This document shows positions 17,539 to 29,265 of a stretch of DNA of 64,000 nucleotides, one piece after another (the first letter of the stretch is position 1; each line of letters opens with the position of its first letter). The notes beneath the pieces are model-generated. The model saw nothing but the letters and a program-made list of their open reading frames with translations, ran no database searches and was not told where the DNA came from. The stretch is from Candidatus Thorarchaeota archaeon. GTDB taxonomy: Archaea > Asgardarchaeota > Thorarchaeia > Thorarchaeales > Thorarchaeaceae. The stretch spans positions 21,993 through 85,992 of the forward strand of contig JBHLRC010000002.1 in assembly GCA_048882965.1 (NCBI GenBank). Direction: 5' to 3'. Both the position numbers and the translations under genes were made by a program.

Positions 17539-18102
17539 TTATACTGTTAGATGAGCTTTCCAACGACGGATTCTTTTCAGAATATTATCTCTTTCATCTG
17601 GACGTATTGTTCTCGTTCCTCGTGCCTTGAGGAAATTGAGGACGATGTCCATATCTCTGGCAACCTTGCTCTTTTGTGAGTCGCTGGTGTCATCAATCAG
17701 ATACTCTCTTGCAGCCTGAAGGTACTCAAGAATTATCTCTGCAGGAGCTTCTCCAGTTCGTAATTCATGCGCAATCGGATCGAGAACTCGGTTTACCTTT
17801 GCACCGTTTCCACTGTCTGGGTCTTCAGATATTATCGTTTCAGTAGACAGGTCGCTTTCTACTACAGTGACAGGAGGATCCTCATCATCAACTTGGGGGA
17901 TTGTTTCTGATTCAACAGTGTCTGAAGCTGGTGTCTTGACTTCGGAGAATAGTGGAAGAATCGAGGCAGACGTTTCTGAACTAGTATCTGAAACAATGTT
18001 CAGACGACTACGTAATTCACGAAGCTGGTCAAATAGCTCCACAAGACCTGATTGCATTAAGTCAATGAGTTGTTTTATCTCATTAAGTTCATCATCGGAC
18101 AA
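17539..18102 (-). CDS. Hypothetical acidic protein (coiled-coil N-terminus, acidic Ser/Thr-rich linker, helical C-terminus)
   Basis: Long ORF co-oriented with and 83 nt downstream of herA. I recognise no family. Confidence 0.45.
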   Translation of the reverse strand: MSDDELNEIKQLIDLMQSGLVELFDQLRELRSRLNIVSDTSSETSASILPLFSEVKTPASDTVESETIPQVDDEDPPVTVVESDLSTETIISEDPDSGNGAKVNRVLDPIAHELRTGEAPAEIILEYLQAAREYLIDDTSDSQKSKVARDMDIVLNFLKARGTRTIRPDERDNILKRIRRWKAHLTV

Positions 18103-22669: not shown

Positions 22670-23248
22670 CTAAACAGGTTGAGTGAGTATGCTTGCACGC
22701 ATGGCATTTTGAAATAGATATTGAAAAGCCTCCATGACATTATGTCCTTCTCTTGCTATACTTCTGAAAACTGGTACAGATGGTGGAATCTTCAGATGCC
22801 TTCTAAGCGTTTCTTCATCAATCGCAGTTGGCAGGTCTTGTTTGTTAAGGCATACAATCAAGGGGAGTGGGCGTTCTTCCTCCTCAATCATTGACATTAG
22901 CTCGTTCCAGCTTGCTAGATTCTCATCAAGTAGATGTTCTTGGGAGTCTGCAATGAAGATTACTCCATCAGCTCCAACTAATACTACCTCTCTCGTCGAC
23001 CTGTAGAAGTCCTGACCTGTGGCCGACCAAATGTGGGCGTTTATTGTCCAGCTGCTACTCAATGAAAATGGAATTGTACCAAAGTCACAAAACATTGTCC
23101 TTCCAACGGTGTTTTCTATTGAGGTGAGTTTCTCTGCATAGTCAAGTGTTGAGAACAACCAACGAATCGAGGTAGTCTTTCCACCCATTGCAGGCCCAAA
23201 GAAGACTATTTTGAGCCCCACAGTACGGTTGCCATAGTCGATTATCAT
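22670..23248 (-). CDS. MglA/CvnD-like small GTPase (COG2229-like)
   Basis: G1 GPAMGGKTT, variant G3 SATGQ, G4 NKQD. GGAGG RBS upstream. Confidence 0.8.
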   Translation of the reverse strand: MIIDYGNRTVGLKIVFFGPAMGGKTTSIRWLFSTLDYAEKLTSIENTVGRTMFCDFGTIPFSLSSSWTINAHIWSATGQDFYRSTREVVLVGADGVIFIADSQEHLLDENLASWNELMSMIEEEERPLPLIVCLNKQDLPTAIDEETLRRHLKIPPSVPVFRSIAREGHNVMEAFQYLFQNAMRASILTQPV

Positions 23249-23263
23249 TTTATAGACCTCCGG

Positions 23264-24184
23264 TCATGTTCCCCACATACTGTCTACCCAAGCCCCGAGT
23301 CCTGACAAGGCTCCACTTTTAACGCAATCTGAGAAATCTTCATGCCATTCAGCTCTGATGAACTGAATCAAGTCGGGTAGTTCTCCTCCATCCCATCCGA
23401 TAGCCTCATAGAGATTTCTTTCTGTTAGAGTGGTGGATGCGCCAAGTTCTCTCGCTAAACGAATTCTTGATAGTAAAGTGACAGCTCTTCGAGCAGCATG
23501 AACATAATTGTTTATCTCTTCCTCAAAGACATCTTGTGTCAGTTTCTCAGATTCATCATCCAATTTGAGAACTGCAGTCAAGATATGATTTGATACATTG
23601 AGACCACGAAGTGACTTTGTTAGTAGTCTTCTGATTCTTTCCAGTGATTGTTTCTTTCGAACTAGGATCTTGTTCACTATTTTCTTTTCAACATCTAAGC
23701 TACTATCAGATGGTCTAACGAGTGAGAAGGTTATAGCTGACGGCGAACTCACTCGTAATAGTCCACAGTTGCCTGAGTTTTTCAGAACATGTGCAGTCAC
23801 ATCTTGAAGAGTGCTCTCGGTCACTTGTACTCCAAGTACTGTGAATCCCAATGGGACTGCAAGAATCCAACCAGCAAAATGCGAGATTCGATCCATTGCA
23901 AGTCTAAGGTTCCCCGAGAGACCGCAAACAATAGTCCTGCTGACTTCATAGTTGTGTTTCTCTTCTTCCCAAACTGAGAGAATCTCTGATTCAGATGTAA
24001 AATCCCTCCAAAATACTAGCTTATGTCTGTGGGAGCATAGAGTTGTCAGACTCTCAGTGATGTCGTCTACAATCTCGATGTCCTCACCTGCAACGATTAC
24101 TGGCATTCGTTCTAGTAATGCGTTCAGTAGGAGTGGGAACTGATCACCCATCAACTCTATTAATTTCATAATTGAATAAGTCAT
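23264..24184 (-). CDS. Uncharacterised 306-aa protein, middle gene of the Roadblock-GTPase operon
   Basis: Its start overlaps the Roadblock gene's stop (ATGA), and it lies 15 nt upstream of the GTPase. I recognise no family. The N-terminal PVIVAGEDIEIVDD segment is vaguely core-DENN-like. Confidence 0.6.
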   Translation of the reverse strand: MTYSIMKLIELMGDQFPLLLNALLERMPVIVAGEDIEIVDDITESLTTLCSHRHKLVFWRDFTSESEILSVWEEEKHNYEVSRTIVCGLSGNLRLAMDRISHFAGWILAVPLGFTVLGVQVTESTLQDVTAHVLKNSGNCGLLRVSSPSAITFSLVRPSDSSLDVEKKIVNKILVRKKQSLERIRRLLTKSLRGLNVSNHILTAVLKLDDESEKLTQDVFEEEINNYVHAARRAVTLLSRIRLARELGASTTLTERNLYEAIGWDGGELPDLIQFIRAEWHEDFSDCVKSGALSGLGAWVDSMWGT

Positions 24185-25128
24185 GGTTCTCTCCTCGTCA
24201 ACATTATACTGCTATCAGAACCTCCAGATAGTAGCAGTTCCTTCAAATCATCTGGAACTGATGGTTTTACTGCAGATGCGGCAGCTAAGACCCGTCGTAT
24301 TTCCTCAATGTAGTGTTTCAGTAGAAGTCGCATTAACCCAAGTTTTTGACTGTCTTTATCCACCCAAAGACTGAACACACCGTTTGGAACAGCATAGATG
24401 AAATGACGTGTTTCTGAGGTTTCACATAAAACTGTCTGAAGTGAGCTATTCCTTAAAGTTCGTACAACACGTTCAGATGCATCATGAAGTGCGAAAGACA
24501 TTGCAGCAAGTCTATCGTTAGTAAACCCCTCTAATGAAACTCTGACTCCACCACTGAGTGACAAGAAAACAGATCCAATGCTTGGGATACAATCATGAAC
24601 TTGACGCAGAAGTGCCCTAAGACTTAGTGCTTGTGACCTGTCCAGTGAGATCATGGAACGTGAAATACCATAGTTTGTGTTTCGACCTTCAGCTACAGCA
24701 AATCCTTGTAGTACTTTCTGAGTTTCGTCCATACTATAGGATCGGAGTGGTGGAAGTCTTCCATCCACGTGTTCTCTGAGAAGGAAAGAAAGTCTGGATA
24801 GATTGTCTTTCATCTCAATGAACAATGCAGCAAGATTAACTCGTGGTGCAGTAGTTACTGTCAGGAAGTAATCTGGGTCATTTGGCAACGAAGCGAGGAA
24901 GACCTTAGATGTGTCAGATTCCATTAGTAAGTAGTTGAAATTGCCATGTATGAGTTTAGCAACTCCAAAAATCGCGCAAGTTGAGGATGCCACTGCAAAG
25001 ACTTCATCCTTACTGAACCATACTCCAGCGCTCGCAACAGGGAGCCCGTCTTTTTGGATTAAAACGACATTTTCAACTCCGGTGATGGCTTTAATGTTCT
25101 GTAGGGTTTCATTCAGTTCGTCGCTCAC
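24181..25128 (-). CDS. Tandem Roadblock/LC7 (MglB-like) domain protein
   Basis: N-terminal ITGVENVVLIQKDGLPVAS..AIFG signature and a second similar module around residues 165-290. Confidence 0.7.
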   Translation of the reverse strand: MSDELNETLQNIKAITGVENVVLIQKDGLPVASAGVWFSKDEVFAVASSTCAIFGVAKLIHGNFNYLLMESDTSKVFLASLPNDPDYFLTVTTAPRVNLAALFIEMKDNLSRLSFLLREHVDGRLPPLRSYSMDETQKVLQGFAVAEGRNTNYGISRSMISLDRSQALSLRALLRQVHDCIPSIGSVFLSLSGGVRVSLEGFTNDRLAAMSFALHDASERVVRTLRNSSLQTVLCETSETRHFIYAVPNGVFSLWVDKDSQKLGLMRLLLKHYIEEIRRVLAAASAVKPSVPDDLKELLLSGGSDSSIMLTRREP

Positions 25129-25265
25129 ATACTCAGCCCCGGGTGGATTGTTGAGTTCAATGTAGAATCCATCTTGTTACTATTTAACCACCACACAGAA
25201 TTAGACCTGACCAATACTCACTCTGTAGATCTGGTCTACGATTGCATATTATAATTGAAAAACTG

Positions 25266-27330: not shown

Positions 27331-27467
27331 AGACTTTCAGCCCTTTATAATCGCTATAAGAGTTACGTAGATACCGATTTGAACTATTTCTTCATCAAAT
27401 TTATTGGGTGAGGATTGTACCGAAGAACTCAAAGAGCTTGCTTGAACACATCGTGTCGGTTCTGCAG

Positions 27468-28232
27468 ATGTTTTTCACATTTATAGTTGGAACAGCAGGT
27501 TCAGGAAAGTCCCTACTTACAGCATCACTGGAGAAGTGGTTGGTTGGTTCGGATTTGAGTGTGACTGTGGTCAACCTTGACCCTGGTGTGGATTCCCCCC
27601 CATATACGAGTGATGTTGATATCAGAGAATATGTGGACTATGGAGAGATTATGAGCTCATTTGGATTGGGTCCGAATGGAGCACTTGTGGCCTCCCTAGA
27701 TATGGCTGTAAGTAGTGTGAATGATATAAGGGATGAAATAATTGATACTGACCGAGACTATGTGATTGTGGACTGTCCGGGGCAAATGGAACTTTTTGCA
27801 TACAGAAACTCCGGACCATTGATGGTATCTAATCTGGGCGGCGATGATCCGTCACTCTCTCTCTATTTACTTGATTCGAATATTGCTCGCACTCCAACAG
27901 GATATCTTTCATCAACGCTTCTAGGGATTTCAATCAATATTCGATTTAGTCTTCCTCAACTGAACGTATTAAGCAAACCAGATATTCTATCAAAGGAGGA
28001 GGTTGAAAGAATCGTGGAGTGGGGTTTTGAAACGTACATGCTTGAGGAGGCTCTTGAAAACTCTGCTGAGGGATTAAGGAGAGAGTACTCAAAATCAATT
28101 TTACAGATGCTTGAATCTTTAGACACTGCAACAGGCAGTATACCAGTTTCTGCAAAAGAGATGACGGGAATGGATGTGTTATATGGAGAGATGCAACGCA
28201 TCTTTGCTGGTGGCGATAATCTATACGAGTGA
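27468..28232 (+). CDS. GPN-loop GTPase
   Basis: G1 GTAGSGKS, LDPG, GPNG (GPN loop) and DCPGQMELF. I prefer the start at MFFTFIVG. Confidence 0.85.
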   Translation: MFFTFIVGTAGSGKSLLTASLEKWLVGSDLSVTVVNLDPGVDSPPYTSDVDIREYVDYGEIMSSFGLGPNGALVASLDMAVSSVNDIRDEIIDTDRDYVIVDCPGQMELFAYRNSGPLMVSNLGGDDPSLSLYLLDSNIARTPTGYLSSTLLGISINIRFSLPQLNVLSKPDILSKEEVERIVEWGFETYMLEEALENSAEGLRREYSKSILQMLESLDTATGSIPVSAKEMTGMDVLYGEMQRIFAGGDNLYE

Positions 28233-28239
28233 TGGTTTT

Positions 28240-29265
28240 TTGACCAAATATTTTGTCTATCTATCCGGTGAACAGACGAGCATAGCTAAAGCAGAGGTTG
28301 ATGTACTGTCCCAGCTATTGGGAATTGATGAACGCTATTATTGGGACGGACGGATTGGGTTGATTGATTCTCAAAAAAGTCCGGTTTCCTTTTTCATAAA
28401 TAGAGCTGCTTTGGTCAAAGAGACAGGTTTAGTAATTTCAGAAACTCATCCACAGGACCTTGCACTTGGAAATCTTTCTGATGAAATGCTAAAGGAACAT
28501 ATCAAGCCTAAAGAAACATTTTCAGTGAGGACCATCTCAGATAACAGTGATATCTCAGTCAGTGATCGGTTGAGTTTTGAGTCTAGCCTAGGCGCACGTA
28601 TCAAAAAGGTCGTTGGAGCTAAGGTGAACCTAGAGAGGCCTCAAGTACGTATTATTGTAATAATTTCTCAAGAAACTATCCGTATCTGCAAGTCGGTTGC
28701 TTCAAACTTACGTCCAATATTGAGAGAAAGAGAACCAGGCCAAAAGCAGTTCTTTCATCCCAGTATGATGAATGCCACTCTATCCAGAGTGATGTGTAAT
28801 CTTGTAGGTCTCATGCCAGATGAGATTTTGCTTGATCCGTTTTGTGGGGGTGGAGGCATTCTCTGCGAAGCAGCTCATATCGGCGCGAAAACAGTGGGTA
28901 TTGACTTGAATTGGCGGTTGTTGTCAGGAAGTAAAAAGAACCTTACCTTTACAGGTAGTGATTATTCCATCATTCAAGGGGATACTAGAAGTTTGCCGGT
29001 TCGAAGTTGTGATTGTATAGTAACCGATCCACCATACGGAAAGGCTAGCTCGACAAGGGGAGCCAATGCTGTTGAGCTTGTTGAGTCTCTTTTTAGTATA
29101 GCAAGTTCAATTCTTGCTCGGAGAGATGGGAGTATATGTATATGTGGGAGCAGTGAAATGAACATTCAAGATATAGCAGGCGACATTGGACTTATCGTTG
29201 AGCAGGTGCACCAAATCAAGGTTCATAGCGGTTTAATCAGGGAAGTACTAACTCTTGGAGTTTAG
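28240..29265 (+). CDS. THUMP-domain tRNA guanine-N2 methyltransferase (Trm-G10/Trm11 family)
   Basis: SAM motif DPFCGGGGIL, catalytic DPPYG and an N-terminal THUMP-like region. The TTG start at 28240 avoids a long overlap with the GPN gene. Confidence 0.65.
   Translation: MTKYFVYLSGEQTSIAKAEVDVLSQLLGIDERYYWDGRIGLIDSQKSPVSFFINRAALVKETGLVISETHPQDLALGNLSDEMLKEHIKPKETFSVRTISDNSDISVSDRLSFESSLGARIKKVVGAKVNLERPQVRIIVIISQETIRICKSVASNLRPILREREPGQKQFFHPSMMNATLSRVMCNLVGLMPDEILLDPFCGGGGILCEAAHIGAKTVGIDLNWRLLSGSKKNLTFTGSDYSIIQGDTRSLPVRSCDCIVTDPPYGKASSTRGANAVELVESLFSIASSILARRDGSICICGSSEMNIQDIAGDIGLIVEQVHQIKVHSGLIREVLTLGV

Follow-up and report, generated by a model that had tools for sequence, protein, structure and literature searches.

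Analysis of a 64,000-nucleotide stretch of a Candidatus Thorarchaeota archaeon genome (assembly GCA_048882965.1, contig JBHLRC010000002.1, positions 21,993 to 85,992; hereafter the window) revealed three tightly packed minus-strand genes coding for a protein with two Roadblock domains, a 306-aa protein termed X, and an MglA-type small GTPase. This triad is probably the Thorarchaeota copy of a known Asgard-wide operon, a self-contained small-GTPase switch in which the DENN-like X would serve as second regulator. The analysis established how the genes are built, to which families the GTPase and the Roadblock protein belong, what fold X is predicted to have, and that the gene order is conserved. 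In eukaryotes, membrane traffic and nutrient signaling are organized by small GTPases together with their Roadblock/longin and DENN regulators, and the origin of these components is part of the eukaryogenesis question. Consisting of three small soluble proteins, the triad offers a tractable system for asking whether DENN-GTPase regulation predated eukaryotes and grew from an MglA/MglB-type switch.

Liu, Makarova, Koonin, Li et al. (bioRxiv 2020, 10.1101/2020.10.19.343400; Nature 2021) have described an operon that is shared by most Asgard archaea and encodes a DENN protein, a small GTPase, and a member of the Roadblock superfamily; their study places the GTPase outside the Rag family, terms it “Rab-like”, and proposes a folliculin-like guanine nucleotide exchange factor (GEF) role for the module. 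The triad in the window is in all likelihood this operon, to which it was matched by composition and distribution. The two are alike in both, in the LAMTOR-like Roadblock protein, and in the proposed folliculin-like role, and no conceptual difference separates them; the GTPase termed “Rab-like” there has MglA proteins as its closest solved relatives here. Furthermore, the triad-bearing Thorarchaeota SMTZ1-45 (locus L019; X orthologue within LRSL01000069.1 66368-74943) was published well before the Liu et al. study and was available to it. The initial annotation of the stretch, made from the sequence alone, had allowed for an Asgard-related organism, which it is, and had proposed an “undescribed three-component switch”, which does not hold given the operon of the same composition described in 10.1101/2020.10.19.343400. 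The operon is therefore already known and not a new discovery, and the value of the locus lies in a clean example with added detail: the MglA-type GTPase, the tandem Roadblock protein, variants lacking X, pairs of X paralogues, and a C-terminal tryptophan tail on X. Experimental characterization of the triad operon was not found in three later papers on Asgard longins, Roadblock proteins, and MglA-like GTPases (PMC10933270, PMC12290439, PMC13408092).

Gene arrangement and its conservation across Asgard archaea

The genes and the elements between them lay as follows (window coordinates, all on the minus strand):

24181..25128, minus strand: tandem-Roadblock gene, 315 aa, GTG start (MglB/LAMTOR-like)
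24181..24184, minus strand: ATGA stop/start overlap of the Roadblock gene and the X gene, read from the sequence
23264..24184, minus strand: X gene, 306 aa (DENN-like, without a longin domain)
23249..23263, minus strand: 15-nt spacer between the X and GTPase genes, ccGGAGGtctataaa, read from the sequence
23257-23261, minus strand: Shine-Dalgarno-like GGAGG in the ccGGAGGtctataaa spacer, 8 nt ahead of the GTPase ATG
22670..23248, minus strand: small GTPase gene, 192 aa, MglA-type
25129..25265, minus strand: 137-nt intergenic stretch 5' of the Roadblock gene, with A/T-rich TATA-like stretches

The three open reading frames (ORFs) are real genes rather than chance ones, since a homology search of a large protein collection returned more than 200 homologues for each protein and 70 of the 80 related loci examined show the same arrangement. 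Tight coupling of the genes through the ATGA overlap and the GGAGG-bearing spacer, as the initial annotation had read it, was found at the same positions. The overlap was kept in 56 of the 68 complete triads and is predicted to couple translation of the Roadblock and X genes, while the intergenic stretch upstream is presumed, from its composition, to be the promoter region of the Roadblock gene.

A genome scan anchored on the GTPase with one genome per species yielded 574 related loci, and the locus counts given here refer to the best 80 of these 574. They were distributed as follows:

Roadblock-X-GTPase, complete triad: 68/80 loci
X-GTPase, cut by a contig end: 2/80 loci
Roadblock-GTPase without X: 7/80 loci (Hermodarchaeota and unclassified Asgard metagenome-assembled genomes, MAGs)
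Lone paralogous GTPase: 3/80 loci (Thorarchaeota genomes that also have the triad)

The conserved neighborhood with X, on which the initial annotation's proposal depended, was thus present at 68 complete and 2 edge-cut loci, with no variation seen in the gene order of the triad. Triads occurred in Thor, Odin (LCB_4; X orthologue WEU40934.1), Baldr, and Hel lineages, in Lokiarchaeum ossiferum, and in others, and an X homologue was also identified in Hermod (P0317). Even distant X homologues on short metagenome contigs (23-33% identity) had the GTPase downstream and the Roadblock tandem upstream. Long contigs, among them the closed Odinarchaeum yellowstonii LCB_4 genome, carried an intact triad within flanks quite unlike those of Thorarchaeota. 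Adjacency through local synteny only was ruled out by this recurrence with unrelated flanks.

Variant arrangements were also displayed among the loci. The variant without X (L078-L082, L084, and L085; Hermodarchaeota and unclassified Promethearchaeota MAGs) consisted of a tandem-Roadblock gene (~320 aa) followed directly by an MglA-type GTPase gene, with one or two extra small-GTPase genes ~2 kb downstream at several of these loci. The lone GTPase paralogues (L071, L073, and L074; Thorarchaeota) were 59-68% identical to the triad GTPase and had neither Roadblock nor X beside them, and their genomes also contained a full triad (e.g., TM1S.149 and AMARA_8). Divergent X paralogues lay side by side at two loci of a Promethearchaeota MAG (GCA_054681365.1; L007 1126-2744 and L008 5052-6936) and had neither a Roadblock nor a GTPase gene in the surrounding 5 kb, suggesting a heterodimeric DENN-like pair independent of the triad. 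Lastly, complete Asgard-type triads were found on loci from MAGs labelled Planctomycetia (L088) and Patescibacteria (L091); the former hardly differed from the triads of Baldr and Odin, and in the latter a further GTPase paralogue lay immediately upstream of the Roadblock gene. These bacterial labels probably reflect mis-binning and not transfer.

The GTPase and the tandem-Roadblock protein

The GTPase gene encoded the following motifs:

23171-23197, minus strand: G1, GPAMGGKTT
23090-23104, minus strand: switch I, GRTMF (intrinsic arginine, Arg50), aligned to MglA ERTLF
23012-23026, minus strand: G3, SATGQ (glutamine, Gln79), aligned to MglA TVPGQ
22835-22846, minus strand: G4, NKQD

Pfam matches to Arf, Ras, and Roc were above cutoff, and the four best matches among PDB sequences (phmmer) were all MglA (E 1.5e-28 to 1.4e-27), including T. 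thermophilus MglA (3t12, the best match, E 1.5e-28) and M. xanthus MglA (E 1e-27), followed by Arf, Arl, and Rab at E 1.6e-8 or weaker. The G1, G3, and G4 motifs named in the initial annotation were all present, and proper alignment uncovered no normal DxxG motif: SATGQ fell column for column on TVPGQ of both T. thermophilus and M. xanthus MglA, with the Q of TGQ on the Q of PGQ, and GRTMF fell on ERTLF, which carries the MglA intrinsic arginine finger. MglA proteins possess an intrinsic switch-I arginine finger (Arg53) and a catalytic glutamine (Gln82). The motifs were invariant in eight divergent orthologues (alignment A6), and over the 80 relatives G3 was SATGQ in 71, TATGQ in six, and other variants in three, with aspartate in none. 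GRT[ML]F occurred in 80/80 relatives and the G1 and G4 motifs were invariant or near-invariant. By these alignments the protein is assigned to the MglA type with a non-Asp G3, as first annotated, and with the predicted catalytic arginine and glutamine in its own chain.

In the Roadblock protein, Pfam Robl_LC7 matched residues 6-82 (37 bits; cutoff 23) and was the sole Roadblock domain found by Pfam. A profile built from seven divergent orthologues and run against PDB delimited two domains, here given with their matches:

~24775-25119, minus strand: N-terminal Roadblock domain (Robl_LC7 and profile match)
~24259-24621, minus strand: C-terminal Roadblock domain (profile match)
Profile positions 4-118: Roadblock 7f8m, E 3.8e-6
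Profile positions 169-289: Roadblock 9jue, E 2.8e-5
Profile positions 171-288: CvnB5 3leq, E 5.5e-4
Profile positions 161-293: MglB, E 0.03

Each of the second-half matches (9jue, 3leq, and MglB) spanned the full domain length, and an hhalign comparison brought the N-terminal and C-terminal halves into register (E 0.0024). The protein is thus a covalent tandem with two domains in one chain, because each half matches Roadblock structures separately and the halves align in register, in agreement with the two modules proposed by the first reading. The PPL linker between the domains was invariant. Matches to MAPKK1_Int (LAMTOR3/MP1 family) were also obtained with orthologues, and one of them exceeded the Pfam cutoff.

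Protein X and the rival explanations

X had no match in Pfam, NCBIfam, or PDB sequence searches, in the case of Pfam even at E values up to 10, and the profile of its family gave only spurious ferritin matches among PDB sequences. The large protein collection contained 227 homologues, mostly from Thorarchaeota and all unnamed, and an exhaustive profile search yielded 74 representative clusters that were mostly 290-310 aa and matched full-length. The main AlphaFold2 (AF2) model, built from 34 diverse sequences (alignment A2), reached a pLDDT of 92.8 and a pTM of 0.87; an earlier AF2 model from a shallow alignment (at least 78% identity; pLDDT 58) served as a secondary check only. The main model displayed beta-alpha repeats in residues 1-155 and solely helices in residues 164-303, corresponding to two lobes:

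~23705-24184, minus strand: alpha/beta lobe (core-DENN-like), residues 1-160
~23276-23695, minus strand: all-helical lobe (downstream-DENN-like), residues 164-303

Foldseek searches of PDB with this model included the following DENN matches:

Rank 1: 8dhb_J, active FLCN GTPase-activating protein (GAP) complex, prob 0.98, E 9.6e-3
Rank 4: C9orf72-SMCR8, prob 0.77
Rank 9: DENND10, prob 0.47
Ranks 18, 22, and 27: DENND1B and DENND1A, prob 0.41-0.60

The 8dhb_J chain is one that we take to be FLCN or FNIP2, both of which are longin-DENN proteins. The earlier, weaker model had DENND10 as its top Foldseek match (prob 0.97). Among the 34 members of alignment A2, Folliculin_C was the only Pfam family matched by more than one, and DENN-class matches fell on homologous N-terminal segments of three X family members, all sub-threshold:

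P0250, residues 5-62: Folliculin_C model 4-62, E 4.8e-4, 20.2 bits (cutoff 27)
P0251, residues 5-54: Folliculin_C model 6-55, E 0.015
P0258, residues 9-51: Pfam DENN model 90-132, E 0.093

A comparison by hhalign with the C-terminal domain of human FLCN, whose sequence equaled that of PDB 6ulg at all positions but one, placed X residues 11-51 on FLCN 356-396, the same register as the Pfam matches. The initial annotation had likened the N-terminus of X to a core-DENN/folliculin-type start, and it is this segment that carried the sub-threshold matches and the hhalign alignment, with DENN proteins on top in two fold searches. No longin domain precedes the alpha/beta lobe in the AF2 model, nor is one expected upstream since the homologue matches begin at Folliculin_C model positions 4-6. 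Taken together, the evidence is suggestive and below formal significance; on this basis X very probably consists of a core-DENN and a downstream-DENN part and has no longin domain.

X has invariant residues at R26, P28, and R53, and it ended in a tail (...WVDSMWGT, 23264-23290) modelled at a pLDDT of about 60. A tail with terminal tryptophan (...W, ...WG, or ...WGT, such as GDxIDGLWG, WVDSMWGT, and DWLSSLW) was present in 77/77 full-length X proteins of the triad type and absent from three paralogues of the X-X type (L007 and L008). The tail looks like a docking peptide.

Several results weigh against the reading of the triad as the Asgard-wide operon with a DENN-like second regulator. The DENN assignment of the modelled X is below formal significance, as the DENN matches had Foldseek E values of 9.6e-3 to 2.3e-2 and TM values of 0.29-0.36 with P-loop, AAA+, and RecA-type ATPases interleaved, the best E and TM being 9.6e-3 and ~0.36. 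At the sequence level, DENN-class Pfam matches were obtained for 3/54 X family members scanned, all below the curated cutoff and with none among 20 further orthologues, and hhalign of the X profile against the single FLCN sequence was not significant (E 0.56). With regard to gene content, X is not essential to the Roadblock-GTPase pair because seven loci have the pair without it, suggesting from gene content that the pair is the core and X an accessory, and distant paralogues of X form X-X pairs at sites remote from any GTPase gene. Finally, identity with the published operon is drawn from composition, distribution, and LAMTOR-like character and is not at the accession level.

The interleaved ATPases raise the alternative that X is not a DENN homologue but a degenerate, inactive P-loop domain of AAA+-like or RecA-like type with a helical lid, its DENN likeness then reflecting a generic three-layer alpha/beta fold. 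Clamp-loader, RavA, CpaF/TadA, VirB11, KaiC, and spastin ATPases were matched by Foldseek at E values similar to those of DENN, with TadA/CpaF at prob 0.84. However, DENN proteins ranked first for both models (prob 0.98 and 0.97) with a root-mean-square deviation of 8 Å compared to 14-24 Å for the AAA+ matches, and a Walker A motif was found in 0/80 X family ORFs, by which an active NTPase was ruled out. Moreover, Folliculin_C was the sole Pfam family with more than one match in alignment A2, the DENN-clan matches coincided on homologous N-terminal segments, and the published operon of the same composition was called DENN independently (10.1101/2020.10.19.343400). A P-loop origin of X is accordingly judged improbable. 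A still smaller likelihood attaches to the triad being an archaeal counterpart of the actinobacterial conservon, in which X would be a non-homologous stand-in for CvnC/DUF742 downstream of a sensor kinase. The mirroring of the conservon put forward in the initial annotation stood for the gene order, the C-terminal Roadblock domain resembled CvnB5, and the GTPase was MglA-like as is CvnD; on the other hand, X has no DUF742 or other Pfam match and is a 306-aa protein with a two-lobe DENN-like fold, and no CvnA-type histidine kinase gene was seen beside the triad in the window or at the Odin, Loki, and other loci inspected. With neither DUF742 in X nor a linked kinase the conservon reading was rejected, leaving an analogy only.

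A further alternative accepts the DENN fold and concerns its role: X may be a non-catalytic scaffold or effector that couples the switch to a downstream target by binding either the Roadblock platform or the GTPase in its GTP-bound state, leaving the Roadblock tandem alone as GAP, and possibly GEF, as argued for MglB. DENN domains dimerize and scaffold in the folliculin and C9orf72-SMCR8 complexes while catalysis resides in the longin domains (discussed in PMC12290439), and a 2026 study argues for dual activity of MglB alone, with RomRX as an effector and not a GEF (PMC13408092). Roadblock-GTPase pairs without X and the conserved, low-confidence tryptophan tail, typical of a docking peptide, are likewise compatible with a scaffold. 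Against this, classical DENN domains are exchange factors, as in DENND1-Rab35, and the coupled position of X between the other two genes suggests a stoichiometric core subunit; a purely scaffolding X is consequently regarded as possible yet less favored than the triad acting as a switch in which X is a second regulator.

Proposed mechanism, related systems, and flanking genes

Complex formation, the assignment of GAP versus GEF activity, and the cellular process controlled are matters that we infer by analogy, the mechanism being proposed because of established knowledge on MglA-MglB structures and longin-DENN complexes. With two Roadblock domains in one polypeptide, the protein would present a single GTPase with the kind of platform otherwise formed by an MglB dimer or by a longin/Roadblock heterodimer. 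The tandem would most likely bind the GTPase and speed GTP hydrolysis as MglB does, positioning the GTPase's own arginine and glutamine and supplying no arginine finger. X and the Roadblock protein together may rebuild from separate proteins the longin-plus-DENN architecture of folliculin-FNIP, C9orf72-SMCR8, and DENND1, with X most likely acting as a second regulator, either as an exchange factor in the manner of DENND1-Rab35 or as a co-regulator or scaffold on the Roadblock platform.

A more specific and more tentative form of this mechanism, which we consider rather unlikely as a whole, is a “split folliculin” in which the Roadblock tandem and the longin-less DENN protein would rebuild the longin-DENN unit around a client MglA-type GTPase with its own arginine finger. 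X would then be an exchange factor docking via its tryptophan tail, and a later addition to a Roadblock-GTPase pair that is older and in some Hermodarchaeota still exists on its own. If true, the module would be an extant intermediate, in mechanism, between the MglA/MglB switch of bacteria and the FLCN, C9orf72, and DENND regulators of eukaryotes.

The triad shares with the MglA-MglB systems of M. xanthus and T. thermophilus the Ser/Thr in place of the G3 Asp, the switch-I arginine, the catalytic Gln, a match at the 1e-28 level, and a predicted Roadblock partner with a pair of Roadblock domains for a single GTPase. It differs in the fusion of these domains in one 315-aa chain in place of a homodimer, in the DENN-like gene between the Roadblock and GTPase genes, and in that RomR, RomX, and RomY genes are not present. 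As a further difference, the host archaeon has no known gliding motility. With FLCN-FNIP, C9orf72-SMCR8, DENND1A/B, and DENND10 it has in common the two lobes of X, for which these proteins were the best structural matches, and the Roadblock/longin-superfamily and small GTPase partners. In contrast to eukaryotic longin-DENN proteins, X lacks an integral longin domain, a second protein carries the Roadblock domains, sequence similarity stays below family thresholds, and the presumed client GTPase is MglA-type and not Rag, Arf, or Rab. An arginine-finger or “GP” longin motif was not noted in the Roadblock protein, though no search aimed at one was made. The conservon (CvnA-D) is alike in its order of Roadblock protein, middle protein, and MglA-like GTPase and in the weak CvnB5 similarity; the triad differs in having no CvnA kinase and, in X, a middle protein of more than double the size that does not belong to DUF742.

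The triad was flanked in the window by genes coding for an HD phosphohydrolase, a helix-turn-helix protein, a GPN-loop GTPase, CTP synthase, and NurA/HerA, and the stretch is assigned to an archaeal chromosome because of the HerA, NurA, CTP synthase, HD-domain, and GPN-loop GTPase genes. Near-identical homologues bore Thorarchaeota source names, in line with this Asgard lineage. The GPN-loop GTPase gene (PF03029, E 1.9e-57; 27408-28232, plus strand) lay ~2 kb from the triad, a linkage kept in Thorarchaeota (L001-L003) and not in Odin or other lineages that is probably mere local synteny. Its end was overlapped by 59 nt by the longest ORF of a methyltransferase-like gene (28174-29265, plus strand). 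The true start of this gene is probably further downstream, since its product is 363 aa here compared to the 343-345 aa called in relatives. An acidic 187-aa ORF with no Pfam match was found just downstream of herA (17539-18102, minus strand), and a similar unannotated 189-aa gene occupied the equivalent position in other Thorarchaeota (L001 12111-12680).

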